Below, one piece after another: positions 7,579-60,593 of a stretch of 64,000 bases of DNA. This DNA comes from Halomonas sp. (GTDB lineage: Bacteria; Pseudomonadota; Gammaproteobacteria; Pseudomonadales; Halomonadaceae): positions 125,632 to 189,631 of the forward strand of contig JAGOBJ010000001.1 of assembly GCA_017983445.1 (NCBI GenBank). The letters are read 5' to 3'. Position 1 is the first letter of the stretch. The number at the start of each line of letters is the position of its first letter. The notes under the pieces are model-generated. The model did no database searches, had not been told where the DNA came from, and saw nothing but the letters and a program-made list of their open reading frames with translations. The position numbers and the translations under genes were made by a program.

Positions 7579-7828
7579 GCAGACTCCTCATCATTGGTCA
7601 CTTATCAAGCTGATTACACGCAACCTGAGCTGGCATGTCAAAGATGAGAGGGGCATCTCATGCAAACTCACTACGGTTTGCGCTGTACAGGGTCGAGTCG
7701 CCTGAGTACCATTTACCCCTGTAGGCCCAAAAGGGCGGCCGTCATGATGCTCAAGACAGCATTCGGCTCTTTGTCTTGTTGTTCATATTGGGCTTGATTT
7801 CATAACTTTGCAGGTGAGGAATAAACGG

Positions 7829-8713: not shown

Positions 8714-8806
8714 TGCTCTTTTATCACATCCGGCGCGATACTATGGCTACTCGGCATATCCAATGGTGTGCCGGGTGGTCGCTCTGTTGACTGTTAAGGT
8801 GGCTTG

Positions 8807-9790: not shown

Positions 9791-9820
9791 TCTGTTTATT
9801 TGATCCCTTTCGGAGCTGTC

Positions 9821-10537
9821 ATGGAAAAGCGCCAAGAACTTTATGCCGGTAAGGCAAAATCTGTATATATCACCGATGATCCGGACCTGCTGGTGCTGCA
9901 GTTTCGTGATGACACCAGCGCTTTCGATGGTAAGAAGAAAGAAGCCTTGGCCCGTAAAGGGATGGTCAACAACATCTTCAATGCGTTTATCATGGAGCGC
10001 TTGCAAGAGGCCGGTATCCCTACGCATTTTGAAAAACAGCTCTCACCCAACGAGAGCCTTGTTAAAAAAATGCAGATGATTCCGGTCGAGTGCGTGGTCC
10101 GCAACATCGCCGCAGGTGGACTGGTAAAACGTCTGGGCATTGAAGAAGGCATCGCGCTTACGCCACCTACCTTTGAGTTGTTCTTGAAGAACGACGACAA
10201 AGGCGACCCGATGATCAACGAGTCGCTGGCCGAAACCTTTGGCTGGGCAACGCCTGAACAGCTGGCCAAGATGAAAACGCTGACTTTCAAGGTTAACCAT
10301 GTGCTAAAGCAGTTGTTTCATGAGGGCGATATGCTGCTAGTGGACTACAAGCTTGAATTCGGCGTGTTCAAAGGCGAAGTAGTACTGGGCGATGAGTTCT
10401 CTCCGGACGGCTGCCGCCTGTGGGATGCCAATACTCGCGAGAAGCTCGACAAAGACCGTTTCCGTCAAGGTTTGGGCGGTGTGATCGAAGCCTACGAAGA
10501 AGTAGGCCGCCGTCTGGGTATCACGTTTCCCGCCTGA
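9821..10537 (+). CDS. purC: SAICAR synthetase
   Basis: [54 protein letters not shown]. Confidence 0.97.
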
Positions 10538-10546
10538 CATAGCCCA

Positions 10547-10650
10547 TTAACCTGGCACTAAATCGATAGCCACCACTTCTAACGTGGTGGCTTCGTCGTT
10601 TTGGTAGGCACGGAAGTTTACATTCATATCGCGCAGGCCATACAAGCGCC
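10547..10650 (-). pseudogene. Orphaned 3' fragment of trmO (left island boundary repeat)
   Basis: Minus-strand translation RLYGL--RDMNVNFRAYQNDEATTLEVVAIDLVPG* versus intact TrmO end RIYGLRLRDVDVKFRAYQNDEATTLEVVAINLITG*; 93/104 nt identical to 27376-27485 plus one 6-bp gap (manual alignment). Confidence 0.92.
10568..10602 (+). terminator. Probable purC terminator formed inside the trmO remnant
   Basis: AGCCACCAC-N7-GTGGTGGCT followed by TCGTCGTTTT, 30 bp after the purC stop. Confidence 0.5.
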
Positions 10651-10686
10651 TTGTTATTTCGCTTATCACTAGACTATAAGTGATTA

Positions 10687-11415
10687 TTAATTCAATGTTT
10701 TGCTGTTTTCTTCAATTGATCTTAATCGGTAGCCGTAGCCATAAACAGATACTAGATTCCAGCCGTGTTCAGCAGTAAGCAATAGTTTTTTTCTTATCCG
10801 ATGAATATGGACGTCAAGCGTTCGTGTATTAAGGTCGTTGTCGCGCCCCCACACATATTTGTATAAATAGGCACGAGAAAGAGGGCTATCAAGACGATTT
10901 AACAGAAGATAAGCAAGACGAAACTCTTGATGTGTGAGTGTAATATTCTGACCACTGATACATGCTGTTTCTTTCTGAGTATTAAGTTTTATACAGCCGA
11001 ACTCCAACTGATGGGCTTGATTTGTTGTGTAAGTAGTTTTTCGGCGCGAGGCTGCATAGGCACGAGCTGCTAATTCACGTGGTCGAAAGGGCTTGCTAAT
11101 GAAGTCGTCGGCACCTGCGTCCAACGCTTGAATAACATCAACCTCTTCCTGACGGTGAGTCACAATTACGACTGCCGGTAAAATCTTAAGATACCTCTTC
11201 ATCCAATCTAGTAAGTCGATGCCTGTACCATCAGGTAGATGCCAATCCAGAAGCACTAAATCAAACGTTTCACGACTCACGGTATGAATAAATGCCGCGC
11301 TGGTCTCAAATGCCGATATGTTTGATTGTATCCCTCTATTTATGAACCCTTCATAGAGCGCTTTTCGCATGCGTTCGAATATTACTTTTTCGTCCTCCAC
11401 AATTGCTATCCGCAT
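10687..11415 (-). CDS. OmpR/PhoB-family response regulator
   Basis: IVEDE, LLDWHLP (phospho-Asp), GADDFISKPF, winged helix RTLDVHIHRIRKKL...SVYGYGYRL. Confidence 0.93.
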   Translation of the reverse strand: MRIAIVEDEKVIFERMRKALYEGFINRGIQSNISAFETSAAFIHTVSRETFDLVLLDWHLPDGTGIDLLDWMKRYLKILPAVVIVTHRQEEVDVIQALDAGADDFISKPFRPRELAARAYAASRRKTTYTTNQAHQLEFGCIKLNTQKETACISGQNITLTHQEFRLAYLLLNRLDSPLSRAYLYKYVWGRDNDLNTRTLDVHIHRIRKKLLLTAEHGWNLVSVYGYGYRLRSIEENSKTLN

Positions 11416-11596
11416 AACTTCCCCTTGAATAGTCTCAATTTTATTTTTCTGAATGCTTCACCATATTTTGAAAAACAAAAGTTTAATTAATTATTTTTCA
11501 GTGAAATCTATAAGTTCTATCGCTTAAAAATCGATTAATTGATTCAAGCAGTAGTTGGTTTGATTTTATCTCAGTACATAAATTATGGCAGCAAGC

Positions 11597-11622
11597 GTTA
11601 ACAATTGTTAACTAATGTTGAG
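11597..11622. promoter_or_regulatory. Candidate response-regulator operator (three half-sites, 10-bp period)
   Basis: GTTAAC-AATT-GTTAAC-TAAT-GTTGAG in the divergent intergenic region; first 16 bp are a perfect palindrome. Confidence 0.45.
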
Positions 11623-11861
11623 ATGCGTGGCACGAAAGAACGAGAATGCCTCGACCAATGCTTATACCTAAAAAAAGATTGGTTAATGCCACCTCTAGGG
11701 AGTGGCAAGAAGTATATGGGAGCCGGTCGCCTGCCTTCTCCAGTGATAGCTCTTTTTGCCTCACTCATCTTGACGCTGCTCAGAGCTTGGGTGCTGTACC
11801 GCAAGTGAGCGTGAAGGATGTGTAAAGCGTTTCGACTAAATGATAAGTGGAAGGATATACA

Positions 11862-14800
11862 ATGAATAAAGTATTTCGCTTGATCTGGAATAGCTCCCTT
11901 GGACGCTTGGTGGTGGCATCCGAAATGGCTCGCGCCAGCCAAAAAGCAACCGGCTCCTCTGGTGTCGTAGGTGGGGCAGCGTTAGTTCCGATTTCTTGTC
12001 ATATAGTCCGAAAAGCTTTTCGTCTCTTGCCATTGACACTGGCCATGATACTGACAGGCGGCGCTGCATATGCTCAAACTAGCGTCTTGGCAGGTAGTAA
12101 CATTCTTGTTACTCCCGATAACGCAACCAACCCCACTGCTTACACAATTTCGACCGAAGATGATGTTACGTTCAATAATGTTTCTACTAACGAACTAACC
12201 GTCAGTAGCACAGCAATTCTCAGTGCTTTGCAGGTCACTGGAGCCACCACGTTAACTGGTGGCTTAGTCATGAGTAATAGCCAGATCACCGGTTTGGCGA
12301 ATGCCACTGCTAACGATCACGCCGTTAATTTAGGCCAGTTGAATGCGGTGAGTAACGCGGCTAATGCAGGTTGGAATATTAGTGCTGGCGGCGGTAGCTC
12401 TGAAAACGTTGCGCCAGGTGACTCCGTTGACTTCAGCGGCGACAGCAATATCAATGTTAGTCGCACAGGTACTAACCTTACCTTTAGTTTAGCCGACGAA
12501 ATCAATGTCGACCGTATTACGGCGGGTAGTGCTGCTTTCGGTAGCGACGGTTTGACTATTACTGGTGGACCAAGTGTAACGTCAGAAGGCATTGATGCAG
12601 GCGGTAGCACTATCACTAATCTTGGAACTGGTTTAATCGGAGAGGGTAGCCGGGACGCTGTAACCGGTGGACAGGTTTTTACCTATTTTGTCGAGGAAGG
12701 TCTCGGTGGAGGCATAAGATATTTCCGCGCAAATTCCGTTTTACCTGATTCAAGTGCAGAGGGATTGGACTCTATTGCGATTGGCCCTGAGGCAACGACC
12801 ACTGAATTTGGCGAAAGCGCTATTGCGATGGGACAAGGTGCCAAAGCCGGTGGCGAAAACGAGGGGGGGCAAGGGGCTATTGCCATCGGCCGTGGTAGCG
12901 AAGCGCAAGGTAACAGCACTATAGCGCTAGGCGATGGCGCGCAAGTCACTGGAACTCAGGATAATGGCTTTAGTGCTGGCGCCAACGCGATTGGTTTCGA
13001 CTCCCTGGCCAGTGCTGGCAATGCAATGGCTTTGGGTTCTAGCTCTATAGCGTCTGGTGTCGGTAGCCTTGCTGCTGGCTATGAGGCTGAAGCAGCAGCA
13101 GACAACGCGCTAGCGGCAGGTACAGGTGCCTATGCAGGTACCGAACGTGGGATTGCATTAGGCAGTGGGGCTGGTGTTGGTACCGAAGGCACCACAGCTA
13201 GAGATCGCACTGACCATATTGCAGTTGGTACTAATGCTGGTACTGGGGTGACCGGCAACCAGACTACCGCAATTGGATACGGAGCTGGTCAAAATGTAAT
13301 CGGTGATAATAATCTCGCATTTGGTACCGAAGCTGGACGAGGCTTGGTCGGTGATCACAATATTTCTATTGGTGCCCAGGCTAATAATGGAGCTGGAAAT
13401 CGCGCGCAATCTATTGCTATTGGTGATAACTCGGGGGCTGGTACTAACTCGGTAGCATTGGGTAGCGGTGCTCAGGCTGAGGGCGATGAGACACTGGCTC
13501 TAGGCAAGGATGCAAGCGCAGGAGTCAATGGTGTTGCATTAGGCGCTCTGGCAGTGGCTGAGGGAAGCAATATTGCACTGGGGCGTAATTCGCAGGCATT
13601 AGGTGTTGATGCAAGTGGTAGAGGCTACTTAACCGGTGAACCTGTCCCTGTTTCGGTGGTGTCAGTGGGAAGCTCGGCGCCTGGAGGAGAATTCCAGCGC
13701 CGCATAGTTAACGTCGCGGATGGCTCTCTGCGATACGATGCAGTCAACGTAGGACAGCTTCAAAGCTCCCAGCGCTCCATAACGCCGCTTATAGGAGGAG
13801 GCGTCGTTTTCAACCCGGATACGGGTACGTTCAGCACTATTACAATCGACGACATAGAATACAGTAGTGTTGCTGACGCTATTAGAGGTGCTGCTAATGG
13901 ACAAATTGATTCTGCTGCGCTACCTGCAGATGTCGTTCGTTATCAAGGGGCGGGCGATAACCGCCGGATCTCAAATGTAGGACAAGGTCAAGCTGATACG
14001 GACGCAGTGAATGTTGGCCAGTTGAACGAAGCAATTTCAGACAATGGCATTAGGTACTTCCATGCTAACACCACTGTTGATGCAAACAGGCAAAATGATG
14101 GTGCTAGCGGAGCTAACTCTATGGCTATTGGGCCCGCTGCCGTTTCTGGAGGAGCCTCAGCACTCGCTATAGGTCATATTGCCGTGGTCGACTCAGGTGC
14201 CAGTAGCGGTATCGCTATTGGCCATAATGTTAATGCTAAAGCAGTAAATTCAACTGCGTTAGGAAGTAATGGTACTGTCGCCTACGGCCAAGGGGGAGTT
14301 GCGATAGGGCAGCAGGCCATCAGTCAAGGACAAAATTCGATTGTCATAGGAACAGATGCCCAGGCTGATCCTCAATCTGGCGGAACGGTTAATAACGCTA
14401 TTGTGATGGGTACCGATGCTGAAGCCACTGCCGATAATGGAATGGCTATCGGCGAGAATGCATTAGCTGCCGCAGACAGTGCGGTAGCTCATGGCTTTGG
14501 TGCGGAGGCCCTAGCAGTCGACTCGCAAGCATTCGGCACCAATGCCACAACTAGTGGCGTGAGCTCCCAGGCGAGAGGCACTAGTGCTAACGCTAGCGGT
14601 ACCAATGCTCAGGCGAGTGGTACCAATGCTAATGCAAGCGGCACCAGTGCGATTGCCAGCGGTACCAACGCAGAAGGTTTGGCCGCCCACGGTATTGCCA
14701 TGGGAACCGGTGCGATTTCTGGATTTGAGCCTTTAACGACTGAAGAAGCTGCTCGTAATCGTGGCAGCATCGCGATTGGCGATCGCTCGGTTGCCAACGA

Positions 14801-17800
14801 TCGCAACGCTTTGGCGTTGGGTGTGCTGACCCGAGCCGAAGCTGAGTCTGCTATTGCCGTAGGTGATAGAGCCGTAGCTTCTGCCAACAATGCATTGGCG
14901 GTCGGTGTAAATTCGCAGGCGAATGCTCTAAACGCGTCGACATTTGGTTTTAATTCACGAGCGGAGGCGCAAAACGCATCAGCGTTTGGTCAAAATGCGC
15001 AAGCGGCAGCTATCGATTCATTGGCTGTAGGCCCTGGTGCTCGCGCTACCGCCGTAGACTCTTCTGCTTTTGGCCGTGGCGCAGAAGCGGTCCATACACG
15101 CTCTGTAGCATTGGGCGATGGGGCAAGAACTGAAGCAGCCTTTAACACAACGGGCGCAACAATTGATCGAGTTCCGTACACGTATGCTGGCACCACTCCT
15201 ATCGCAACCGTCAGCGTAGGGACCTTGGAAGGTGACAAGCGTACGATTACAAACGTTGCAGCCGGACGTGTGAGCGATATAAGTACTGATGCCATCAATG
15301 GCAGTCAGCTATTCCGCACTAACCAAGCCGTCACATCGCTAGGCAATAATCTGGATACTGCAGGTCAAAGTGTTGCAAATTCCCTTGGCGGTACCTCTAC
15401 CTATAATGCCAATAACCATACGGTTTCGGCCAACCTATCTGTGCGTGGTAACAACTACACAAACGTGCAAGACGCGATTCAGTACGCCGCTCAAGGTTGG
15501 AATGTAAGCGCCAATGGAGCCGCATCGCAGAACATTGCGCCGAATGGTTCGGTCGATTTCAATAATACCGATGACAACATTGCGATTAGCCGTAGTGGGT
15601 CCAATCTGACATTCAATCTGGCTAATAACGTAGAGGTCGGTAATAGCGTTACGGTTGGTGATACCGTTATTAATGGTGACAACGTTACCTCTGATAGCTT
15701 GACGATTGGCGGCTCTACCTTTGTTGTTGATGGTGGCAACGCCACTTATAACGGTAACGAGTTGGCTACTCAGGCAGATGGCTTAAGCTTTGCCGGCAAT
15801 ACCGGTGGCACTATCACCAAAGCCTTGAGCGATACTGCGCCGCTGACCATCTCCGGTGAGCTGGATGCAGGCGATGCAGCTACTGGTGCAAATATGCGCG
15901 TCAGTAGCGATGGCAATCAGTTAAATCTGCTAATGGCGCGCAACTTGGCCGACCTGGACAGTATCACCATCAATAACGGCGGCCCGGTGATCAACGGCGG
16001 CGGTATCGATATGAACGATACCCAGATTGTAGGATTGGCGGATGGCACAGCAGATGATCATGCGGTCAATCTGGGGCAGCTCAATGATCTTGCCGACACG
16101 CCGCTAACGTTTGGAGCCAATCAAGGCCCTGACTCCGAACGCCGTCTGGGCCAGCGCCTGGATATCGTTGGAGAAGAGGATGCTGACGGTAACAGCAATA
16201 TCATCACCACGCTGACCGGTGAGGAAACGCTGGCACTGGCACTGAACGACGACCTTACCATCGGTAATAGCATCACCATTGGCAATACGTTCATTGACGG
16301 TGACAGCGTTACTACCAATAGCGTCACTGTAAACGAAGACCTGAGTGTAGGGGGTGATACTTATCTGGGTGATAGCTTCTCGGTGGTAAACAATGAGGCG
16401 ACTTACACAGGCCCTATCACTAACGATAACTCTGTTGTTAACAAACAGTACGTCGATGGCATAGAAACTCATTACTACAGCGTCAATGATGGAGACACCC
16501 CGCGTGGTAACTATGCCAATGACGGGGCTACAGGACTTACATCACTTGCGGCCGGTGTTGATGCGTCAGCCTCAGCGCTACGTAGCACTGCGCTGGGTTA
16601 CAGCAGTAATGCTGCGGGTATCGATAGTATTGCGGTTGGCGACAGTTTGGCGAGTGGCCGAAATACCATAGCCATTGGTAATGGTGCACAGACTGATGGC
16701 GCGAACACTGAGGGCGTGTTCGAGGGTGCTGTTGCCATTGGCTACAATGCCAAATCAGATGGATTTCTTGCCACTGCGGTTGGGTCTCGGGCCCAGGCAG
16801 TCGGTACAGGTTCTATTGCGATAGGTGACTCAGCCACAACCGCTAATGCAGACGCTACCAATGCTGAAAGTATAGCCATTGGCGCATCAAGCCAAGCAAC
16901 TGGAGACCAGTCAGTTGCACTGGGTGCAAACGTCGTTGCCTCTGGTAACTCATCAACAGCAGTTGGTGGGGATGATATTGATAAAATTGCAAATAATACA
17001 GAACAAGCGGATCAGTACACTGCTATTACTGGTGGAACAATTATTCCTACGCAGTATATATCAACAACTGCTTCTGGCGCTGGTTCCTCAGCATTCGGGG
17101 TAGCGTCAGTTGCGTCTGGGAATTTCTCAAGTTCCATTGGGATGATGTCATCAGCTACGGGTGCTGCGTCAGTCGCATTAGGTGTTAACTCTAACGCTGA
17201 AGGGCAAGGTGCACTAGCAATTGGTGCGGTTTCTACTGCTTCGAATTCAGGTTCTGTTGCAGTAGGTATTAACTCAAGATCAGCCGGTGAAAACGCCATC
17301 GCCATTGGCTCTGGTAACACTGCTACTACTGGCGCAAATTCAACTGGCACAAATTCGGTGGCTATTGGAGCAGGTGCCAATGCCAGTGTGGCTAACTCTG
17401 TTGCACTTGGAGCGGGCTCTATAGCCAACGGCACTACAAGCACGACCGCTTATCAGCCATTAGATGCCGATGGCAATCCGATTGCCGTAGCCGCCCCGAC
17501 AGCGACAAGCGAAGTTTCGGTGGGCTCTTCCGGTAACGAGCGCCGTATCACCAATGTCGCGGCGGGGGCATTAGATACCGATGCGGTCAACGTTAGCCAG
17601 TTGAAAGCGGTTAATGAAGTTGCGAATACTCCGCTGACGTTTGGAGCCAATCAAGGCCCTGACTCCGAGCGCCGCCTGGGCCAGCGTCTGGATATCGTTG
17701 GAGAAGAGGATACTGAAGGTAACAGCAATATCATCACCACGCTGACCGATGAGGAAACGCTGACACTGGCACTGAACGATGACCTTACCATCAATAATAG

Positions 17801-20800: not shown

Positions 20801-21080
20801 TGAGAATGAGATTATCAACGTGCATGGCCGCATCGATAGTGTTGAACGGAATGCCAATGCTGGTTCTGCCAGCGCGATCGCAGCTTCAACTGTACCGCAA
20901 GCCTGGATGCCCGGTAAAAGCATGATAGGTGTAGGTGCAGGTACCTATAGTGGAGAGTCTGCAGTCTCAGTCGGTGTTTCAAGGCTTTCTGACAATGGCC
21001 GCTGGGTTATCCAAGGCAAGGTCACGGGCGATTCGCAAAGCAACTTCGGCGCAGGTATTGGCGCTGGCTGGCACTGGTAA
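11862..21080 (+). CDS. Giant trimeric autotransporter adhesin (YadA/AtaA-like), ~3,070 aa
   Basis: Extended signal peptide MNKVFRLIWNSSLGRLVVASE...AAYA; many YadA head repeats (AIAIG/ALALG); necks R.I.NVA.G...DAVN..QL; C-terminal anchor ending GAGIGAGWHW; RBS AAGGA before ATG 11862. Confidence 0.96.
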   Translation: MNKVFRLIWNSSLGRLVVASEMARASQKATGSSGVVGGAALVPISCHIVRKAFRLLPLTLAMILTGGAAYAQTSVLAGSNILVTPDNATNPTAYTISTEDDVTFNNVSTNELTVSSTAILSALQVTGATTLTGGLVMSNSQITGLANATANDHAVNLGQLNAVSNAANAGWNISAGGGSSENVAPGDSVDFSGDSNINVSRTGTNLTFSLADEINVDRITAGSAAFGSDGLTITGGPSVTSEGIDAGGSTITNLGTGLIGEGSRDAVTGGQVFTYFVEEGLGGGIRYFRANSVLPDSSAEGLDSIAIGPEATTTEFGESAIAMGQGAKAGGENEGGQGAIAIGRGSEAQGNSTIALGDGAQVTGTQDNGFSAGANAIGFDSLASAGNAMALGSSSIASGVGSLAAGYEAEAAADNALAAGTGAYAGTERGIALGSGAGVGTEGTTARDRTDHIAVGTNAGTGVTGNQTTAIGYGAGQNVIGDNNLAFGTEAGRGLVGDHNISIGAQANNGAGNRAQSIAIGDNSGAGTNSVALGSGAQAEGDETLALGKDASAGVNGVALGALAVAEGSNIALGRNSQALGVDASGRGYLTGEPVPVSVVSVGSSAPGGEFQRRIVNVADGSLRYDAVNVGQLQSSQRSITPLIGGGVVFNPDTGTFSTITIDDIEYSSVADAIRGAANGQIDSAALPADVVRYQGAGDNRRISNVGQGQADTDAVNVGQLNEAISDNGIRYFHANTTVDANRQNDGASGANSMAIGPAAVSGGASALAIGHIAVVDSGASSGIAIGHNVNAKAVNSTALGSNGTVAYGQGGVAIGQQAISQGQNSIVIGTDAQADPQSGGTVNNAIVMGTDAEATADNGMAIGENALAAADSAVAHGFGAEALAVDSQAFGTNATTSGVSSQARGTSANASGTNAQASGTNANASGTSAIASGTNAEGLAAHGIAMGTGAISGFEPLTTEEAARNRGSIAIGDRSVANDRNALALGVLTRAEAESAIAVGDRAVASANNALAVGVNSQANALNASTFGFNSRAEAQNASAFGQNAQAAAIDSLAVGPGARATAVDSSAFGRGAEAVHTRSVALGDGARTEAAFNTTGATIDRVPYTYAGTTPIATVSVGTLEGDKRTITNVAAGRVSDISTDAINGSQLFRTNQAVTSLGNNLDTAGQSVANSLGGTSTYNANNHTVSANLSVRGNNYTNVQDAIQYAAQGWNVSANGAASQNIAPNGSVDFNNTDDNIAISRSGSNLTFNLANNVEVGNSVTVGDTVINGDNVTSDSLTIGGSTFVVDGGNATYNGNELATQADGLSFAGNTGGTITKALSDTAPLTISGELDAGDAATGANMRVSSDGNQLNLLMARNLADLDSITINNGGPVINGGGIDMNDTQIVGLADGTADDHAVNLGQLNDLADTPLTFGANQGPDSERRLGQRLDIVGEEDADGNSNIITTLTGEETLALALNDDLTIGNSITIGNTFIDGDSVTTNSVTVNEDLSVGGDTYLGDSFSVVNNEATYTGPITNDNSVVNKQYVDGIETHYYSVNDGDTPRGNYANDGATGLTSLAAGVDASASALRSTALGYSSNAAGIDSIAVGDSLASGRNTIAIGNGAQTDGANTEGVFEGAVAIGYNAKSDGFLATAVGSRAQAVGTGSIAIGDSATTANADATNAESIAIGASSQATGDQSVALGANVVASGNSSTAVGGDDIDKIANNTEQADQYTAITGGTIIPTQYISTTASGAGSSAFGVASVASGNFSSSIGMMSSATGAASVALGVNSNAEGQGALAIGAVSTASNSGSVAVGINSRSAGENAIAIGSGNTATTGANSTGTNSVAIGAGANASVANSVALGAGSIANGTTSTTAYQPLDADGNPIAVAAPTATSEVSVGSSGNERRITNVAAGALDTDAVNVSQLKAVNEVANTPLTFGANQGPDSERRLGQRLDIVGEEDTEGNSNIITTLTDEETLTLALNDDLTINNSITVGDTFMDGDSVTTNNLTVTGETRLGDNFVVNNDGNVTYEGAITDGNHIVNKDYVDGAGDDLIAQGMNFAGNDGQVIHKDLGEQLNVVGGMTDMTEGAASAENLRTVMNDDDELEIQLSRNLTDLESVESTTVNVTEELTVAGNTTINDAGTTTNNLTVTGETRLGDNFFVNNDGNVTYEGAITDGNHIVNKDYVDGAGDDLIAQGMNFAGNDGQVIHKDLGEQLNVVGGMTDMTEDAASAENLRTVMNDDGELELQLSRNLTDLESVESTTVNVTEELTVAGNSTINEGGTTTNNLTVTGETRLGDNFFVNNDGNVTYEGAITDGNHIVNKDYVDGAGDDLIAQGMNFAGNDGQVIHKDLGEQLNVVGGMTDMTEGAASAENLRTVMNDDDELEIQLSRNLTDLESVESTTVNVTEELTVAGNTTINEGGTTTNNLTVTGETRLGDNFVVNNGGNVTYEGDITDGNHITNKQYVDNSVGGLADTPLTFGADEGTDSERRLGDRLDIVGEADADGNRNIVTKLTSNSTLELALNDDLIIGNSISVGDGPVISGGGINMSDTKITNLIAGEVSDDSQDAINGSQLYATNQWIENLQGNFVNIVGDSSNAYITNNGRGIRYVRTNDSGLDVSDAFAQGLGSTALGYEASATADQALAMGYEAVAAHQGSVALGAGAQTSAAVGTASIEIAGQTYQFAGINPVATVSVGSVGAERTITNVAAGRISASSTDAVNGSQLHATNQAVGDLDNRVTTVEGDINNINNDLADLDSRAVKYDRNDDGSVDYTTITLEGEGGTTITNVAAGDITENSMDAVNGSQLWDVQNQITNIEQGGSKYFRANSNGPAASSQGTDSIAMGPSSVAEGERSVASGAGSRAEADGSVALGADSVADREGMNGKRERFSNEEVASTQGAVSVGSAGNERQITNVAGGTQDTDAVNVRQLDAVQRGAANYDRDENGNVDYGTITLRGEEGTTITNLAPGVNASDAVNVGQMNDLGRRFENEIINVHGRIDSVERNANAGSASAIAASTVPQAWMPGKSMIGVGAGTYSGESAVSVGVSRLSDNGRWVIQGKVTGDSQSNFGAGIGAGWHW
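16098..16277 (+). repeat. Dispersed 180-bp adhesin module, copy 1 (others at 17628-17807 and 19257-19436)
   Basis: TPLTFGANQGPDSERRLGQRLDIVGEED...LALNDDLTIGNSIT recurs three times; copies 1 and 2 nearly identical at DNA level. Confidence 0.9.
17841..19232 (+). repeat. Tandem 420-bp (140-aa) repeats, 3 full units plus a partial fourth
   Basis: ACCACCAA(T/C)AACCTGACGGT at 17841, 18261, 18681 and 19101. Confidence 0.96.
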
Positions 21081-21091
21081 AGGAGAAGATC

Positions 21092-21919
21092 GTGATTAAT
21101 TCAAATATGAATATTAAGGCGGCCCTTGGGGTCGCCAGTATGACGGCTGTTCTTACTTTGGCAGGCTGCGCTAGCCCACCCAATAACGACCGGACAGAGT
21201 TGCGTGATGAGGGAGACGGCTTTCCTGCCTTGAATAAAAACTGGTATGCAGGTGGTCAGTTTGTGAATCCTGATGATGTACTTCGCATTACTAAAGGACA
21301 AACAAAAGATCAGGTGCGTCAGCTAATCGGAAATCCTCATTTCACTGAAGGTTTCTTTGGTGTGCGGGAATGGAACTACGTTTTTAACCTTTATACAGGC
21401 AATGGAAACGACTACATCACCTGCCAATATCAAGTTCATTTCGCTGATGATATGGCGTTGGAAAGTACGCGTTGGCGAGAGGCGCAATGCCCATCGCTGC
21501 TAATGCCCATAAAGGTAGAAGAAATCGAACAGCAGCCGCGCCAGGAAAAGCTAACGCTTTCAGGTGATGTTATGTTTGATTTTGATAGTGACCAACTGTC
21601 ACTGGAAGGTCAGCGCGCTTTAGAAATAATTGCTCAAGCAGCTCGCAGTGAATATGAGTCGCCAAAGCTGTCAGTGGTTGGTTACACGGACCGCTTTGGT
21701 AGTGAGCAGTATAACGTTGATTTATCACAATCACGCGCTGAGGCTGCCGGTAAATATCTAAGCAGCCAAGGTATCCAAAGCAGCAATATTACGATGGCTG
21801 GCAGAGGTGAAGCTGAGCCCATAGTAGAGTGTCCAGGAGCGATAGCGACTCCCAGTGTTACGAATTGCCTAAGGCCGAATCGCCGTGTGGAAATAACTAT
21901 TACCGAGCGTACACGCTAA
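21092..21919 (+). CDS. TpgA-like lipoprotein: BamE/SmpA domain plus OmpA-like peptidoglycan-binding domain
   Basis: Lipobox LAGC; GQTKDQVRQLIGNPHF...REWNYVF; GYTDRFGS..YN..LSQSRA and NRRVEI; 11 bp after the adhesin stop. Confidence 0.9.
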   Translation: MINSNMNIKAALGVASMTAVLTLAGCASPPNNDRTELRDEGDGFPALNKNWYAGGQFVNPDDVLRITKGQTKDQVRQLIGNPHFTEGFFGVREWNYVFNLYTGNGNDYITCQYQVHFADDMALESTRWREAQCPSLLMPIKVEEIEQQPRQEKLTLSGDVMFDFDSDQLSLEGQRALEIIAQAARSEYESPKLSVVGYTDRFGSEQYNVDLSQSRAEAAGKYLSSQGIQSSNITMAGRGEAEPIVECPGAIATPSVTNCLRPNRRVEITITERTR

Positions 21920-22007
21920 CCACAAGCATGCGAGTAGCGTTGTTTCACTAAAGAATAGGGGCTACTTACCCTAGCCTCTATTAAAAATTTAAGGAGTTAA
22001 GGAATAT

Positions 22008-22412
22008 ATGAAGTACGCAGGATATATCGTGACATTTAGTATCGCTGTAGTCGTAGCCGTTGGACTATCTGTATTTAGTATTGGAGTATTAGCAGAACAG
22101 CCCGGACGTGACGCTGTTAAGCAAATAGATCAAAGTTCGATATGTATTGCATCAACTGATAGACAAGCTCTCGAATGCCCAGAGGGAGGGCTTTTTTTAG
22201 CAAGATTGGCCATTAATGATGCGGACGTTCAAGCCCCTATGGTAATTGAAAACCGTGTACTCAACACAATGGCTCTTTATTGCGATACTAACTTTGCGAT
22301 CCAGCATACTCAAACTGGCGTATTATGCGTGCTAACACATAAGCGTATGAGTACACAGCCTCAAAATGGTATGACGCAAGAAGCAGAAAGTGCTTCACAA
22401 ACACCTGACTAG
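22008..22412 (+). CDS. Hypothetical exported protein with four Cys
   Basis: RBS AAGGAG/AAGGA; hydrophobic N-terminal signal ending VLA; Cys in ICIAS, LECPE, LYCDT, VLCVL. Confidence 0.7.
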   Translation: MKYAGYIVTFSIAVVVAVGLSVFSIGVLAEQPGRDAVKQIDQSSICIASTDRQALECPEGGLFLARLAINDADVQAPMVIENRVLNTMALYCDTNFAIQHTQTGVLCVLTHKRMSTQPQNGMTQEAESASQTPD

Positions 22413-22695
22413 ATAAGAGTTTTACTAAACGAGCATTTTAAGTAAAAGCAAGTTTTATAATTTAAAGCATTGATGTTTAGAAGCTAATAATTATATAAAG
22501 AAATAGCATGCTTATTATGAAAAAAGGCCATCGAAACAAAAGATGTCGAGATGACAAGAATCATTCAGTATATGCATCTTCAAATATCACAAGGGTGCGT
22601 GTGCGACAGCAATATAAATATTGAACGAAAATAGCAAGCTGCCTTTTTTGCCCGATAGGCCTACGTCTATCGGGCTTTTTCAGAGGAATCAACGT

Positions 22696-23613
22696 ATGAG
22701 GATAATGTCCTGGCTCACTCTCATCCTGTGGGGAACCAGCGCCTTGGTATACGCGGATTACGATACCGGCCTCAATGAATATAATCGTGCAAATTATGCC
22801 TCCGCCATTCATGAATGGCGAACAGACGCTGAGCGAGGAAACGCTGATTCTCAGTTTGCATTAGGGATGATGTACGAACGTGGCCAGGGCGTCAGGCAAA
22901 ATACGAACGAAGCTTTCAAATGGTATCGCCTTTCTGCAGATAACGGCTTGATAGATGCCCAGTTGCGCCTGGGTGAACTTTATCTGTTAGAAGTAATAGA
23001 TGGGGAGCCTGATCAAGCTGCACGCTGGTTCAAGAAAGCGGCAGAGGAAGGCAGCGCCTCAGCGCAGTTTCAACTGGGATTGCTCTATTTGGAAGGACAT
23101 GGTGTTGAGGTATCGACTGAGCAGGCAGCACGATGGTTTGAGCTGGCGGCTGAACAGGGTTTTGTCCCTGCACAAAACAATATTGGAAGTTTATACGAAA
23201 ATGGCCAAGGGGTTGAGCAAAGTTACACCCGCGCGTTTGAATGGTATGAGCGTGCAGCTAAACAAAATGATGCCTTTGCTCAAAATAGCCTTGGGGCACT
23301 TTATGCTAAAGGCAATGGAGTAGAGCGGAACCATGCCTGGGCGGTTTTCTGGTTTGTGATGGCAGCGCAAAGTGGTAATACGTTGGCTCAAGAGAATATT
23401 GCTGCAAGCTTGCAACATCTGGAAGAAAAACAGATGACTGGTAGCCAGGTCAATATTCGAGCGGGTGCCAGTATTGAATTTGAGCGCATTGCCTCACTTT
23501 CAAGAGGCGAGACCGTTTATGTATTAGGGAGTATGGATGGATGGAGCCAAATATATTTTCAACAGGAAGGATTGCCAGTAATAGGCTGGGTATCAAACAC
23601 ACTGATTAATTAA
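22696..23613 (+). CDS. Sel1-like repeat protein with C-terminal SH3b domain
   Basis: Signal peptide; about five SLR units (AQF.LG..Y..G.GV....A..WF..AAE.G); VNIRAGAS...GETVYVLGSMDGWSQI...GWVS; RBS AGAGGA before ATG 22696. Confidence 0.88.
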   Translation: MRIMSWLTLILWGTSALVYADYDTGLNEYNRANYASAIHEWRTDAERGNADSQFALGMMYERGQGVRQNTNEAFKWYRLSADNGLIDAQLRLGELYLLEVIDGEPDQAARWFKKAAEEGSASAQFQLGLLYLEGHGVEVSTEQAARWFELAAEQGFVPAQNNIGSLYENGQGVEQSYTRAFEWYERAAKQNDAFAQNSLGALYAKGNGVERNHAWAVFWFVMAAQSGNTLAQENIAASLQHLEEKQMTGSQVNIRAGASIEFERIASLSRGETVYVLGSMDGWSQIYFQQEGLPVIGWVSNTLIN

Positions 23614-23769
23614 AAAATAGCAGGCAAATAGTCATAGATCAGATGAATGGTTGTAAAAAAAAGTGCTTATCACGTTTTGTGCACGCAGGGACATAATGAA
23701 AAAAATAGCCTATCTGACAGTGCTATAAGAAAATCCTTAATTTTCCGTCACTACAGGCTTGTAAGAATA

Positions 23770-25014
23770 ATGAAGCATTACGTTAACTTATTTATAGGTG
23801 CTATGTTGCTGGCTAGCATAACCGCTAATGCCAGTGATTCTGTTGAAGGCGGACATCGCATTGTTTTAGGAGATACACTATGGAGAATTGCTGAGCGTTA
23901 CTATGGTACTCCTTCTGAATGGTCATTTTTACAACAATTAAATACGATTTCTGAACCTACCAATCTGCAACCTGGATATTTACTGGATGTGGGCATGGTT
24001 GACTCATTTCCTTTAACTGTACTCTACCTTTCTGGAAATGCCTGGTTTATTCAAAACAGTGCCGAAACACGCCTGACAATAGGACAAACCATTGAAGCTG
24101 GAGTTACTCTCTTAACAGGAAGAGACACTGCATTAACATTACAAATGAATGATGGTGCACGAATTGTCGTGCCCTCTATGTCACGCGTTACGCTGAAGCG
24201 TGAGGGGGAAAAAGGGGTTACGCTGTTCCTGGAACAAGGAGAAGTTGAATCCTATGTGCCCACTCAGCGTATGCTGCAACGCCCTTATAATATAGAGACC
24301 TACAATGGTGTGCTGGGAGTCCGCGGAACTCACTTTCAGGCGCGCTATGAATCCAGTGCGTTGTTAGCCTCAGTTTATGAGGGGAACGTAGCAGCTGGAA
24401 ATCATATGGTATCTGAGCAGGCCTTTATTGCTGCGGGAAGAGGCGCGCGAATTGGTAATGAGGGAAATGTTCAAGTTGTCACGCTTCTTCCACCACCGGA
24501 ATATGTCAATATCTCTTCGCTAGCATCTGGTGAGATAAAATTAGATGTATTGTCAACGACGGCGGGTGCAAGATACCGGGCACAAATAGCAAACGACCCA
24601 GGCTTTCTAAATATTTTACGCGATGAGCGAACTGAAATTGGACAGCTGCATTTTACAGCTCTTCCGCCGGGGTTTTATCATCTGCGTATTGCGGAAATAG
24701 ATGAACTAGGGATAGAAGGCTATAGCACTACTCAAATTTTTTATCATCATAGTGAACAGGTAAATTTGTCTTTAGAAGATAATGCATGGCTATTTGAGTG
24801 GAATCATCGGCCTCACAAAAGCTATACCTTACAGCTCGCTACTGATCGTTATTTTAATACGGTCCTGTTAAATTACACACCGCATAAAGCTGGAATTCTG
24901 AAAGTCGATCGTTTGCCTTTTGACGAGATATATTGGCGTATTTCGAGTTTTGACGAGCTGGAAAATACAACCAATGTGATTGGTAATGGAATATTGAATG
25001 ACGCTGAACACTAG
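23770..25014 (+). CDS. LysM-FecR-(Fn3/Ig-like) periplasmic protein
   Basis: Signal MKHYVNL...ANA; LysM GDTLWRIAERYYG...LN.I..P.NLQPG; FecR motif LEQGEV...GVLGVRGTHF; C-terminal YRAQIANDPGF beta modules. Confidence 0.85.
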   Translation: MKHYVNLFIGAMLLASITANASDSVEGGHRIVLGDTLWRIAERYYGTPSEWSFLQQLNTISEPTNLQPGYLLDVGMVDSFPLTVLYLSGNAWFIQNSAETRLTIGQTIEAGVTLLTGRDTALTLQMNDGARIVVPSMSRVTLKREGEKGVTLFLEQGEVESYVPTQRMLQRPYNIETYNGVLGVRGTHFQARYESSALLASVYEGNVAAGNHMVSEQAFIAAGRGARIGNEGNVQVVTLLPPPEYVNISSLASGEIKLDVLSTTAGARYRAQIANDPGFLNILRDERTEIGQLHFTALPPGFYHLRIAEIDELGIEGYSTTQIFYHHSEQVNLSLEDNAWLFEWNHRPHKSYTLQLATDRYFNTVLLNYTPHKAGILKVDRLPFDEIYWRISSFDELENTTNVIGNGILNDAEH

Positions 25015-27286
25015 AGTTTTTTCTCGAAAATTACATAAGCGTTTTGTTATCACATGGTGGGCAATGGGGAGCTTACTGTTACCCATTGCTTTTTTTTTGC
25101 ATAGTTTTTCCCCTTTATTATCGGATAATTACTTTTACGATGCCTGGCTATCCTGGCGAGAAAAGCCTCCTTCTTCAGATATATTGATTGTGGCAATTGA
25201 TGAGTCAAGCCTGCAGGCATTAGGGCGCTGGCCATGGCCCCGTAATATACATGCTCAACTTATTCAGAAATTGCAAGATGACAATGTTGAAAATATTGTT
25301 TTAGATATCTTGTTGGTTGAGCCGAGCCGCTTGCCCAGCGAAGATGTATTGTTAGCCGAATCAATGCGCGAGCATGGAGCCGTCTATCTTCCTGTAAGCC
25401 TTCTTACTGATTACCAGGCTGGGAATAGTATGCGAGATGTCCTAATCCCGACACTACCACTGTTGCAGGCAGCAAAAGCTACGGGCCACATTAATATCGA
25501 TATTGATAAAAATGGTGTGCCCCGTACTGTCGAATTGATAAAGTCGCGCGATGGTCAACAATGGCCTCAGCTAATGGTGCCGGTAAGCGCTGATAGAGCA
25601 ATTAAGCTGCCTTCCCAGCCAGTAAGAATTCCATTTCGAGGCCCTTCTGGTCATTACCCAACAGTTTCTTATGTCGATGTGCTAATGGGATCTGTTCCTG
25701 CTTCCTTATTAAATGGCCGTACCGTCATAATAGGTATTACCGCCCAAGGATTAGGGGATCTATATAATGTATCATTGTTATCTAAAGGGCTGATGCCAGG
25801 AGTTGAGATACATGCCCATTTGCTTGATGCCATTAGAGATGGTGCGCTGATACGTGAAGTAAGGCAAGAATTCGGCGCATTAATGGCTAGTATGCCAATT
25901 ATAATACTAATGCTTTTAGCCTGGTGGTTACGCTTTCGCCATTTATTGCTAACGACAATGCTGCTTAGTATTGGCGTATTGGCTTTTTCTTTAACAATGT
26001 TGAGCTTTCGGTGGTGGTGGCCGCCTACTGCTAGCTTAATAGCGTTAGGTATGGCGTCAATTGTTATTGTTGGGCAAAGCCAAGCAATATTATTGAGTTG
26101 GTTCAAACAGGAGCTAGACCTTTTATACCAAGAGCCTGCTATGTTGCCATATAAAGAAAAAAAGCTAATTCTTAATTCAGGTAGCAGGATCTATCAGCAG
26201 TCGCAAGCACTTGAGTTGGCGTTAAATCGTCTTGTCGATGGCCGTCGCTTTATTTTTGATGCTTTGCACTCTTTACCACTGCCTATTTTTATTTTAAATA
26301 AAGAGGGAGGGGTAATGTTAGCTAACAAGAAAGCTTTAGCGCTTCGTGGAGAAAAAAATTTCTGTAGTATTAAACATATCAATGATTTACTGCAAGCTTT
26401 GACTTTCGAAAAAAACCAAACGTTAACATCATTGTGGCCGCCTGCATTTACTGCTGGAATGATAGAGAAGAATATCTGTAATGGGGGCGTATGCGTTGAT
26501 GGAAAAGGGAGTACTTATCGATTAGAAATGGGTAGCCTGGCAACGTCCGTACGCAGTATTGAAGAAAGTTGGTTGCTATGGTTGGTAGATTTAACAAGTG
26601 AGGTAGAGGCTGAAGCACAGCGCGCCAGTATGTTAAGATTTCTTTCTCATGATATGAAAGCGCCACAAACCAGGGCTTTAGCTCTTATCGATGCCCAGCG
26701 TGAACCGGAATTAGCCCTGTCACAGGAAGTTTTCTATCGCACCTTAGAACAAGACTTAAATACAGGAGTAGGAATGATCAATGATTTCATTGATCTCACA
26801 AGGGTGGAAACGCTAAATTTTGAAAACTCTTTTGTTCTACTAGAGGATATAGTGATAGAGGTATTGGATCAGGTGTTTCCTCTTGCTCAGGCCAAGAGTA
26901 TTAAAATTATTAGTACTTGTAATGATGAAGGTGGAGCTCCCGTGATGGGAGATAAAGGCTATCTCTCCAGAGCTATATTTAATCTGATCGAAAATGCCGT
27001 AAAGTATAGTTACCCTCGTGGAGAAATTCTTGTTCACGTTGTTGTAAATAATAAGTGGGTATATTTAAACGTTATTGATGAAGGGGTAGGTGTTAATAAT
27101 AAGGATATCAATGCTATATTTGAAGATTATAGACGTAGTGGTGAATATAATATGGCGCAAGGACATGGCCTTGGTTTAGCTTTAGTAAAAGCAGTAGCAG
27201 AAAACCATGGCGGTTGCGTGTCTTGTAAGAGTGAGTTGGGAGTAGGGAGCCACTTTATATTCAAAATTCCAAGGCTTGAGGAATAA
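24998..27286 (+). CDS. CHASE2-PAS-like-HisKA-HATPase sensor histidine kinase
   Basis: CHASE2 motif IVAIDESSL..LGRWPWPR; three TM helices; H-box SHDMKAP; N-box NLIENAVKYS; DEGVG; GHGLGL. Confidence 0.93.
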   Translation: MTLNTRVFSRKLHKRFVITWWAMGSLLLPIAFFLHSFSPLLSDNYFYDAWLSWREKPPSSDILIVAIDESSLQALGRWPWPRNIHAQLIQKLQDDNVENIVLDILLVEPSRLPSEDVLLAESMREHGAVYLPVSLLTDYQAGNSMRDVLIPTLPLLQAAKATGHINIDIDKNGVPRTVELIKSRDGQQWPQLMVPVSADRAIKLPSQPVRIPFRGPSGHYPTVSYVDVLMGSVPASLLNGRTVIIGITAQGLGDLYNVSLLSKGLMPGVEIHAHLLDAIRDGALIREVRQEFGALMASMPIIILMLLAWWLRFRHLLLTTMLLSIGVLAFSLTMLSFRWWWPPTASLIALGMASIVIVGQSQAILLSWFKQELDLLYQEPAMLPYKEKKLILNSGSRIYQQSQALELALNRLVDGRRFIFDALHSLPLPIFILNKEGGVMLANKKALALRGEKNFCSIKHINDLLQALTFEKNQTLTSLWPPAFTAGMIEKNICNGGVCVDGKGSTYRLEMGSLATSVRSIEESWLLWLVDLTSEVEAEAQRASMLRFLSHDMKAPQTRALALIDAQREPELALSQEVFYRTLEQDLNTGVGMINDFIDLTRVETLNFENSFVLLEDIVIEVLDQVFPLAQAKSIKIISTCNDEGGAPVMGDKGYLSRAIFNLIENAVKYSYPRGEILVHVVVNNKWVYLNVIDEGVGVNNKDINAIFEDYRRSGEYNMAQGHGLGLALVKAVAENHGGCVSCKSELGVGSHFIFKIPRLEE

Positions 27287-27375
27287 AAACGCTTATAAAC
27301 TTGGCAAGTATGACCGAAGCCTATGAAGAAGAAGGCCATCGTTTGGATGTCGCTTCTCCTGCCTAGCATAGCGTA

Positions 27376-28110
27376 TTAACCAGTTATTAAATTGATAGCC
27401 ACCACTTCTAATGTGGTGGCTTCGTCGTTTTGGTAGGCACGGAATTTTACATCCACATCGCGCAGGCGCAGGCCATATATGCGCCCTGGCGCTTCGCCTC
27501 TTTTATAGGCGGGGCGGGGGTCTTGGCTTAACACTTGCTCAATAAGGGCATGCAGCGTGACGTTATCAGTGCGCGTTGTTAGCATATCCAGTGCCGAGTG
27601 GCTGAAGATCACGCGCAGTAACGCAGGCGCCTCAGGTGCAAATCCCGCTTGAGCCGTAGGATGGGCTTCGGCCCAGGGTAAGTAAGGTTTAATATCGACT
27701 ATCGGGGTACCGCTGACCAGGTCGCATCCTTCGAGCCTTAAATGAACCCCGTGCCGTGTGTCGATGCCCGCCAGCTTCACGAGTGAAAGCCCTAGCCGGT
27801 TAGGCCTGTGGGTGCTACGGCTGGCAAATACCCCCACTTTACGATTCCCCCCCAGCCGGGGTGGCCGCACCAGCGGTGTCCAGCGTTCGGGGCTTTGGTG
27901 AAAGATAAATGTTACCCATAGATGACTAAAGTCATCCAGGCCCCGTACGGTCAGCGGGTCATTATAAGGGGGCACCAGTATCAGGCTGGCATCCGCTGCG
28001 GGGGCTAAGCCCGGCTGACGGGGAATACCAAACTTATCCGGGTAGTCGCTCTCAACGTAGCCTATAGGAGCCAATGTAAAAGACTCACTTTCGGGGGCAT
28101 TGTGCATCAT
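27376..28110 (-). CDS. trmO: tRNA (m6t6A37) methyltransferase TrmO/TsaA
   Basis: KFGIPRQPGL, VRPPRLGGN..VGVFASRSTHRPN.LGLS, DLVSGTPIVDIKPY, QDPRPAY. Confidence 0.95.
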   Translation of the reverse strand: MMHNAPESESFTLAPIGYVESDYPDKFGIPRQPGLAPAADASLILVPPYNDPLTVRGLDDFSHLWVTFIFHQSPERWTPLVRPPRLGGNRKVGVFASRSTHRPNRLGLSLVKLAGIDTRHGVHLRLEGCDLVSGTPIVDIKPYLPWAEAHPTAQAGFAPEAPALLRVIFSHSALDMLTTRTDNVTLHALIEQVLSQDPRPAYKRGEAPGRIYGLRLRDVDVKFRAYQNDEATTLEVVAINLITG

Positions 28111-28237
28111 GCTGCCTTATGCTGAGATAGGCGCCCTAGTATAAAGCAGACTGAACAGAATTCAGCCTGACACTGCGTATTGAACGCTTCCAATTTTTCG
28201 ATAACAGCTAGTTTTCGATGATAGCGAGAGGTGATGC

Positions 28238-28768
28238 ATGCCTAATACGGATGAGCATTCTGCGCTTAAAGCATCGACTGCCCGGGTAACCTATCGCGCC
28301 GCATTAGCGCGGGATGCCTCGGATCAGGCTGAGGTGTTTTATCATGCGGTCATGCAAGGCGCAGCAAGCCATTATGAATTGAGTCAGCGCCGCGCCTGGG
28401 CCAATGCACTGCCCCGGGAAGCGAGCGCTTGGGCAGTCCGTCAGGCGCTATACACAACGCTGGTTGCCGTTTGTGATGGGCGCTGCGTTGGCTTTGTAGA
28501 GTTTGATACTCAAAAAGGACGCATCGAAACGCTTTATGTCTGGCCTTCATTAACCGGGCGGGGGATCGGCACCACGCTATTGATTCACGCCGAGCGTATG
28601 CTGCTTGAGCAGGGCGTTGATCGTGTGGAGATTGAAGCCAGCGCCATGCTGTTTGATCGACTGCTGCGCCGAGGATGGGAAAACCTGGGCGAGCAGTGGG
28701 TGGAGCGAAGCGGCGAATCGCTCAAGCGTTACCGGCTGGAAAAACGTCTGAGCGCTATTGAAACCTGA
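28238..28768 (+). CDS. GNAT family N-acetyltransferase
   Basis: LYVWPSLTGRGIGTTLL acetyl-CoA motif A; IEAS motif. Confidence 0.85.
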   Translation: MPNTDEHSALKASTARVTYRAALARDASDQAEVFYHAVMQGAASHYELSQRRAWANALPREASAWAVRQALYTTLVAVCDGRCVGFVEFDTQKGRIETLYVWPSLTGRGIGTTLLIHAERMLLEQGVDRVEIEASAMLFDRLLRRGWENLGEQWVERSGESLKRYRLEKRLSAIET

Positions 28769-28774
28769 ATTCGT

Positions 28775-60457: not shown

Positions 60458-60533
60458 GGGTGGTTAGCTCAGTTGGGAGAGCACCAGCCTTACAAGCTGG
60501 GGGTCACTGGTTCGAACCCAGTACCACCCACCA
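60458..60533 (+). tRNA. tRNA-Val (TAC)
   Basis: 76 nt GGGTGGTTAGCTCAG...CCTTACAAGC...CCCACCA. Confidence 0.98.
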
Positions 60534-60593
60534 TCGAAAGATGGCCTGGAAACGTAAAGCAGTACCAGAGTAATATCAGCATGATGCAACAGC

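Follow-up and report, generated by a model that had tools for sequence, protein, structure and literature searches.

A 16.7-kb adhesin gene cluster set between two copies of the purC/trmO junction in Halomonas

The window analysed here, a 64,000-nucleotide stretch of Halomonas sp. DNA (GenBank assembly GCA_017983445.1, contig JAGOBJ010000001.1, positions 125,632 to 189,631 of the forward strand), carries a 16.7-kb cluster between the genes purC and trmO. Seven genes lie between the two copies of the purC/trmO junction that bracket the cluster; they encode an OmpR/PhoB-family regulator, a trimeric autotransporter adhesin, a TpgA-like protein, a hypothetical protein, a Sel1-SH3 protein, a LysM-FecR protein and a CHASE2 kinase. 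On balance, we consider the cluster to be probably an old adhesin/biofilm islet without an integrase, which is flanked by a duplicated junction, has co-diverged with its hosts, and has been lost, and perhaps regained among close relatives, by general homologous recombination. The closest relatives of the window by TrmO are H. colorata (93% amino-acid identity) and V. zhanjiangensis (87%), which places it in Halomonas/Vreelandella. In 76 of 80 related species representatives, these two included, purC directly faces trmO in convergent orientation. This is the ancestral layout that had been suggested in an earlier reading of the window from its sequence only, and the 16.7 kb are an insertion relative to it. 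The junction comprises the following features.

9821-10537, plus strand: purC (SAICAR synthetase), intact; Pfam SAICAR_synt, E=8e-81; start MEKRQELY.
10479-10652, no strand: left junction copy (DR-L), consisting of the purC tail (10479-10537), a 9-nt spacer and a trmO 3' pseudo-remnant (10547-10652).
10568-10592, plus strand: terminator-like hairpin, left copy, with a 9-bp stem and a 7-nt loop followed by TCGTCGTTTT; directly downstream of purC.
27308-27487, no strand: right junction copy (DR-R), consisting of a purC 3' pseudo-remnant (27308-27366), the spacer and the functional last ~37 codons of trmO.
27397-27421, plus strand: terminator-like hairpin, right copy, lying within the trmO coding tail, 3' of the kinase gene.
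27376-28110, minus strand: trmO (tsaA), intact, 244 amino acids; Pfam TrmO_N and TrmO_C.

Local alignment pairs 10547-10650 with 27376-27485 at a score of 190, the best of 300 shuffles reaching 29. The alignment contains 93 identities over 104/110 nt and one 6-nt indel, by which the left copy is short of one GCGCAG unit; a 51-nt core (GATAGCCACCACTTCTAACGTGGTGGCTTCGTCGTTTTGGTAGGCACGGAA) differs between the copies by a single mismatch. The sequence-only reading had given the position, the 93/104 count, the core with its mismatch and the indel exactly, and had correctly placed the left trmO-like stop 9 nt from the purC stop. Its limits of the repeat were too short. By seed extension and pairwise alignment, the full repeat runs from 10479 to 10652 and from 27308 to 27487 (~175 bp, ~84% identical); extending it further outward gave no significant homology (p=0.12-0.16). 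The gain of 68 nt comes from the 59 nt at the end of purC and the 9-nt spacer, and it includes the purC remnant on the right (27308-27366) that had been overlooked. This remnant reads SMTEAYEEEGHRLDVASPA* (translated by eye) and lies directly beside the trmO stop. The left trmO remnant, which reads ...LRDMNVNFRAYQNDEATTLEVVAIDLVPG* on the minus strand, is not preceded by a gene body; it most resembles the trmO tail of the window itself (83/92 nt), and the next best species is H. colorata (75/92 over the same length). The duplicated unit is the entire convergent purC/trmO junction. Integration into the 3' end of trmO, as formerly proposed, does not describe a duplication that also takes in the purC tail, and trmO as such was not the target. 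PurC of the window is 99% identical to that of H. colorata at the amino-acid level, and TrmO matches NCBIfam TIGR00104 at 134 bits (cut-off 93). The island shows no terminal inverted repeats, and there is no tRNA gene at the insertion site, the nearest ones being ~8 kb and ~33 kb away. The window has two adjacent tRNA-Lys(ttt) genes (2317-2531) and a Val-Asp-Asp-Val-Asp cluster (60458-61029), neither of which has an adjoining island in the window.

The same cargo lies between purC and trmO in at least eight Vreelandella lineages. Besides the window these are Halomonas sp. 86, SpR8, 'V. aquamarina' GCA_054083125, V. alkaliphila, V. nigrificans, the metagenome-assembled genome (MAG) GCA_014861465 of the colorata lineage, and 'V. 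venusta' GCA_052645395. The versions differ in content and in their junctions. SpR8 is without the kinase and FecR genes. A small DUF6447 gene stands between the hypothetical and Sel1-SH3 genes in alkaliphila, 'aquamarina', SpR8, nigrificans and Cobetia (L084 7324-7653; L085 3445-3795; L097 9588-9884) and is missing from the window (22413-22620) and from sp. 86. The window and sp. 86 also share the same boundary between island and purC remnant, and the remnant of SpR8 is titanicae-like. At the readable junctions of alkaliphila, 'aquamarina', nigrificans and 'venusta' no recognisable remnants were seen; in these repeat-less lineages the TrmO tail has diverged where the right junction could be read, and a different purC terminator is present where the left junction could be read. 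Strains 95-99% similar to the window occur in three other metagenomes, with contigs that span most of the island and the left junction, and the colorata-type food metagenomes (four runs) all have the empty site. A search with the Sel1-SH3 protein returned no orthologue above 80%. Outside Vreelandella, the adhesin module is found at different loci in Cobetia amphilecti and H. organivorans, and must therefore have moved at some point in the history of the family. In Cobetia amphilecti, the adhesin/TpgA/DUF6447/Sel1-SH3 module is followed by a RES toxin/Xre-type antitoxin pair (L097 11798-12711).

Two natural pairs of occupied and empty genomes show the presence and absence of the cluster, on readable junctions, between nearly identical, near-conspecific genomes. 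Occupied sp. 86 and empty H. citrativorans FME63 are 96-98% identical over 6-10 kb of flank (97-99% over the 2-kb flanks); both junctions are readable, and the two genomes differ by a unit whose limits are set by the duplicated junction. When both sp. 86 copies and the citrativorans junction are aligned together, the right copy is the same as citrativorans all the way from where the purC remnant begins and on through trmO, and the left copy leaves the native sequence immediately 3' of the purC stop. Both purC-tail copies of sp. 86 carry four clustered synonymous differences from citrativorans within a 99%-identical flank, which would fit a conversion tract. In the second pair, the occupied MAG GCA_014861465 and empty H. 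colorata FME66, the left flank is 98.5% identical and the left junction only could be compared. There the left copy stays close to the native sequence, with 2 mismatches in 95, and then stops abruptly 67 nt into trmO, where it abuts the stop codon of the regulator gene. The point at which native sequence gives way to divergent sequence thus differs between the two pairs, and lies outside the hairpin in both.

The cargo is old in these hosts. Across the six best-sampled lineages, cargo proteins are 43-91% identical, and cargo identity tracks flank identity (Mantel r=0.70, reached by 13/720 permutations). Mean identities are higher for the cargo than for the flanks in just 1 of 15 pairs, and there marginally (alkaliphila/nigrificans, 83.7 vs 81.0); the window and sp. 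86 are the mutually closest hosts among the six. Between the purC remnant of the window and the purC tail there are 15 differences in 59 nt, most of which change an amino acid; by its sequence, the remnant is an old, decayed pseudo-fragment. Its Jukes-Cantor distance of 0.31 can be compared with distances at 4-fold sites of 0.27 between the window and colorata and 0.80 between the window and citrativorans. Because the remnant's distance is at least about that between the window and colorata, the junction duplication is old in the lineage of the window. The co-divergence of the cargo and the decay of the remnant are at odds with a recent integration.

The absence of an integrase from the island, noted earlier, was confirmed by a scan of all island open reading frames (ORFs), which found neither recombinase nor transposase. 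There is likewise no recombinase among the scanned ORFs at 38-64 kb, or between purC and trmO in the seven other island-bearing loci. The rest of the window was read by synteny as core genes (1-7.8 kb against L092; 29.7-38 kb against L082/L084). A recombinase may conceivably be encoded elsewhere in the genome. PLSDB contains no plasmid with the cluster, whether searched by DNA or by the kinase protein, and in the literature no top match for trmO as an integration site contained the term trmO. The locus has repeats, as a site-specific element would, but no fixed crossover core and no recombinase in the scanned ORFs. Of the three modes of arrival that had been offered, homologous recombination fits best, and mobilisation in trans or loss of an integrase is weakened.

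The 51-nt core finds no support as a crossover region. Its heart is a hairpin with a T-rich tail on the purC strand that was called terminator-like in both copies; the left hairpin folds at -26.6 kcal/mol (z=-6.2), far better than shuffles. The motif GCCAYCAC..GTGGTGGC is kept at the nucleotide level in ~45 of the 50 closest Vreelandella loci, island present or not. The hairpin is missing from loci with a wide purC-trmO gap and from lineages in which trmO has ceased to adjoin purC; the latter have a different purC terminator. By these features the core is the predicted intrinsic terminator of purC, with the hairpin encoded within the last trmO codons, and the hairpin putatively terminates transcription. 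The core would stay near-identical since both copies are in use: the left one behind purC, and the right one in two roles, behind the kinase gene and as part of the coding sequence of trmO. Its near-identity may thus be put down to function, possibly aided by conversion, and does not require a crossover site, a role with which the genus-wide conservation of the hairpin regardless of the island and the differing switch points of the two pairs disagree. A dif/Xer-like site within the core was also considered and set aside; no resemblance was seen, as judged by eye and not by a formal test.

The TrmO residues that follow ...VVAI(D/E) are hypervariable in the genus, ranging from 0 to ~15 residues. 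The left remnant of the window ends in AIDLVPG and its TrmO in AINLITG, and the difference had been taken as a sign of a replacement C-terminus brought by the island. This does not hold: TrmO of island-free H. citrativorans ends in AIDIMTG, the same type as that of the window, the trmO-side copy of sp. 86 is native, and the left remnant is closest to the window's own tail. Nothing in these sequences indicates that the TrmO tail was replaced by a foreign one. TrmO of a MAG from sheep duodenum (L041) has a low-complexity insertion of ~35 residues (…NTDIKNADIKNLGSKKSDTKN…) just ahead of the conserved ATTLEVVA motif that encodes the hairpin.

The reading that we favour runs as follows. The cluster would have been inserted long ago, in an ancestor within Vreelandella, into the gap of a few nucleotides between convergent purC and trmO, and ~175 bp of the junction would have been duplicated together with the insertion, presumably in a single old event. 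The patchy distribution could then have come about by homologous recombination, probably of the RecA type, along either of two routes: deletion between the two junction copies, or allelic replacement via the very conserved flanks (purC, bamC and dapA on one side; trmO, a GNAT gene and nadC on the other). Either route would leave perfect empty sites, and recombination with the empty alleles of relatives may occasionally refresh one junction copy. The constant position in at least eight lineages together with the lack of mobility genes is what is seen in cassettes exchanged by recombination.

Several points weigh against such a history. With 76 of 80 species empty, a history dominated by loss needs many independent deletions, and the model leaves the origin of the first ~175-bp duplication unexplained. 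The purC remnant of sp. 86 is identical to its own purC tail; this remnant and the left copy of the MAG are too fresh for a single old duplication and need extra conversion or re-integration. The left trmO remnant extends over ~106 nt in the window, 67 nt in the MAG and ~45 nt in SpR8, which needs secondary deletions or separate events. No joint linking the two junction copies was found among the assembled contigs of the window's own run and of the three metagenomes with 95-99% similar strains, and this evidence on excision is limited to assembled contigs, which break at the shared core. The exact PurC sequence turned up only in a 6.9-kb contig of the same wastewater metagenome, which breaks inside the core, and the exact TrmO sequence of the window gave no match on record. 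In the islands of the window and of sp. 86, the guanine-plus-cytosine (G+C) content of the regulatory genes is 42%, compared with 54-57% in the flanks; in the window, the regulatory half (21500-27300) is at 41-47%, the flanks at 54-55% and the adhesin gene at 53%. Such low values sit uneasily with a very long residence, even though the island of 'V. aquamarina' matches its flanks in G+C and is fully equalised. Finally, the flank genes used as the yardstick for the hosts could themselves have been co-transferred with the island.

Some of these points would be met if the cluster were a cassette addressed by homology, which is possible but, in our estimate, rather doubtful. Recombination between the junction copies would release a circle with one hybrid junction, and this circle would re-enter empty junctions by a RecA-dependent, Campbell-type crossover, regenerating the direct repeats. 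The islands of the window, sp. 86, SpR8 and the MAG would be later re-integrations, and those of alkaliphila, 'aquamarina', nigrificans and 'venusta' old residents. Presence and absence between genomes with nearly identical flanks agree with this, as do the existence of lineages without repeats and the low G+C of repeat-bearing islands set against the equalised G+C of a repeat-less one. Crossovers anywhere in the homology would give what is seen, a native-like copy beside a divergent one and switch points that vary between pairs, and the clustered synonymous differences in both purC-tail copies of sp. 86 resemble a heteroduplex or conversion tract. Yet gene conversion by incoming empty alleles accounts equally well for the fresh copies, and the purC remnant of the window is old and decayed. 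A vehicle was found neither as a plasmid copy in PLSDB nor in the form of transfer genes; the marginal excess of cargo over flank identity in 1 of 15 pairs gives no clear recent transfer between sampled lineages; and how the first circle came by its junction copy would also have to be accounted for.

Very unlikely, to our minds, is the site-specific element at the trmO 3' end of the sequence-only reading, which would have supplied a replacement C-terminus, used the 51-nt core as its crossover region, and lost its tyrosine or serine recombinase or had it encoded elsewhere. Direct repeats do flank the insert, relatives have empty sites, the island deviates in G+C from its flanks, and the near-identical core with its 9-7-9 inverted repeat looks like the core site of a recombinase; the target would be the 3' end of a tRNA-modification gene, recalling SGI1 at trmE. 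But no recombinase turned up in the islands of eight lineages or in the ORFs scanned at 38-64 kb, synteny gives no reason to expect one in the remainder of the window, and no top literature match has the term trmO. The repeat holds 59 nt of purC that such an element need not carry, and the core, with its terminator-like hairpin, is equally conserved in island-free genomes. The switch points fall outside the hairpin and differ between the two pairs, a TrmO tail of the right-copy type occurs in an island-free relative, and the cargo co-diverges with its hosts. If anything less likely again are independent insertions in each lineage, each duplicating the recipient's own junction through widely staggered break repair or homology-facilitated illegitimate recombination. 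The remnants do resemble the purC/trmO of their own lineage (that of SpR8 is titanicae-like, that of sp. 86 equals its own purC, and the left remnant of the window is closest to its right copy), and the left boundaries differ between lineages. Gene conversion accounts for this lineage-specific resemblance, though, and the window and sp. 86 have the same boundary between island and purC remnant, with the remnant in the window being old; we know of no mechanism that repeatedly hits the same few nucleotides with a duplication of 130-180 bp. Least probable of all, we would give little credence to the idea that the hairpin (9-bp arms, 7-nt spacer), besides terminating purC, is where a recombinase from another place in Vreelandella genomes attaches; the cluster would then be an integrase-less cassette mobilised in trans, comparable to Xer-dependent elements at dif, and its target would be a terminator that lies within a coding sequence.

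The genes of the island and one element between its divergent promoter-like sites are listed below from left to right.

10687-11415, minus strand: OmpR/PhoB-family response regulator (Pfam Response_reg and Trans_reg_C); left-most island gene, divergent from the adhesin gene.
11597-11612, no strand: perfect palindrome of 16 bp, GTTAACAATTGTTAAC, between the promoter-like sites of two divergent genes, those of the regulator and the adhesin.
11847-21080, plus strand: trimeric autotransporter adhesin of 3077 amino acids (Pfam ESPR, YadA_head x7, YadA_stalk x9, YadA_anchor).
21092-21919, plus strand: TpgA-like periplasmic protein with a BamE-like N-terminal domain and an OmpA_C peptidoglycan-binding domain (Pfam BamE and OmpA).
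22008-22412, plus strand: conserved hypothetical protein of 134 amino acids, present in all island versions, with orthologues (62-79%) in five other lineages.
22621-23613, plus strand: Sel1-repeat and SH3b protein (Pfam Sel1 x5 and SH3_3).
23647-25014, plus strand: LysM and FecR-domain protein (Pfam).
24998-27286, plus strand: CHASE2 sensor histidine kinase (Pfam CHASE2 and HATPase_c); right-most island gene.

The two outer genes keep their places across lineages: orthologues of the regulator adjoin purC in sp. 86, SpR8, 'aquamarina', a MAG and 'venusta', and kinase orthologues (58-72%) always adjoin trmO in Vreelandella. The palindrome GTTAACAATTGTTAAC occurs once in the window, with promoter-like hexamers on both sides. 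Its core AACAATTGTT is invariant across four island lineages, within a spacer that is otherwise only 67% conserved, and it is a candidate operator for the response regulator of the island; the island regulators may control the adhesin. The adhesin gene is internally repetitive (repeats D1-D3). Four 420-nt units stand in tandem at 17811-19370; compared with the reference copy, three are 90-92% identical and the fourth is 62% identical. Other repeats in the gene are spaced by 1.5 kb (16083-19489). Contigs of related genomes and metagenomes regularly break off inside this gene. The TpgA-like protein matches the NCBIfam TpgA model NF047726 from end to end at 168 bits and PDB entry 9vnj_B, the N-domain of TpgA, at E=4.5e-19. 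By these matches it is a predicted TpgA homologue rather than a proven equivalog, because the score is below the equivalog cut-off of 350 bits. The 134-amino-acid hypothetical protein has no Pfam or NCBIfam match. Orthologues of the Sel1-SH3 protein are 301-311 amino acids long, and its true start is probably ~25 codons downstream of the ORF start at 22621.

The gene order of the operon has a precedent in Acinetobacter sp. Tol 5, where the gene for the very long trimeric autotransporter AtaA is directly followed by tpgA, a gene with BamE-like and OmpA_C peptidoglycan-binding domains (PMC12523085). The same pair is found in the island: ESPR, YadA head and stalk repeats and a YadA anchor are followed by a BamE-like and OmpA_C gene, whose product matches the TpgA model and the N-domain structure. 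In contrast to the AtaA-TpgA pair, the passenger domain of the island adhesin is unrelated in detail, and the operon continues with the Sel1-SH3, LysM-FecR and CHASE2-kinase genes. In Burkholderia contaminans, the BiofilmReg operon encodes an OmpR-type winged helix-turn-helix regulator, a periplasmic LysM and FecR protein and a CHASE2 histidine kinase, and biofilm formation was lost when a plasposon had inserted into the gene for the regulator (PMC5192318). By domain content the island carries the same three components, and its LysM and FecR domain pair is that of the second gene of the BiofilmReg operon. It differs from BiofilmReg in that the regulator lies 13 kb away on the opposite strand, across the adhesin operon, and in that neither a PAS domain nor a DUF4136 gene was detected in the island set; the kinase is only ~30% identical to its Burkholderiales homologues. 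By analogy, the trio could have a putative role in the regulation of biofilm formation or of the adhesin. Cheese rinds, brines and wastewater commonly harbour Halomonas/Vreelandella; in these bacteria the island amounts to a variable locus for surface adhesion that has its own regulatory set of the CHASE2/FecR/OmpR type.

As a genomic unit, the island can be set beside two kinds of known element. The minimal mobile elements of Neisseria and the flexible genomic islands of marine bacteria are cassettes at fixed positions that have no mobility genes and whose turnover is attributed to homologous recombination in their flanks. Like them, the purC/trmO cluster is an accessory cassette between conserved core genes, devoid of mobility genes and present or absent in close relatives. 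Unlike them, it is bracketed by an imperfect ~175-bp duplication of the junction, which is usually missing in those systems; nothing examined here documents natural transformation in these hosts, and a single case of other cargo at the site was seen, in the distant H. ramblicola. Integrative mobilizable elements of the SGI1 type sit in the 3' end of trmE/mnmE, encode an integrase and an excisionase, have a short identical att core and are near-identical in unrelated hosts. The island shares with SGI1 its place beside the 3' end of a tRNA-modification gene, the direct repeats and the intact gene, but the integrase and excisionase, the short identical att core and the near-identity across unrelated hosts do not hold for it. 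The island would show how a large adhesin/biofilm locus can persist for long as a discrete, present-or-absent unit, without a mobility gene, by way of nothing more than a duplicated piece of its insertion site. It also calls for caution in island prediction, where direct repeats, an intact target end and a near-perfect core can stem from a duplicated junction and a functionally constrained terminator, and need no site-specific integration.

The H. ramblicola block (L078 10770-20683) is more than 10 kb long and lies downstream of trmO, with no purC there. It contains an AraC regulator, a MobA-like protein, XdhC, a BenE transporter, a CoA ligase and molybdopterin dehydrogenase subunits, and is either a different cargo at the site or a rearrangement. 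Smaller differences were seen in the neighbourhood of the junction. In the distant relatives Onishia taeanensis and H. salinarum (L061, L067 and L080, at ~7800-10000), ~2 kb of extra sequence separate the GNAT gene from trmO. A contig of run X3, from a strain 95-99% related to the window, joins 28050 to 28786 and so skips 735 nt, in which trmO begins and the GNAT gene lies entirely; the joint may be an assembly artefact, with 31 nt only on its shorter side. Most of the distant Halomonas (L051 onward) have an extra gap of ~850 nt from purC to the bamC-like gene.

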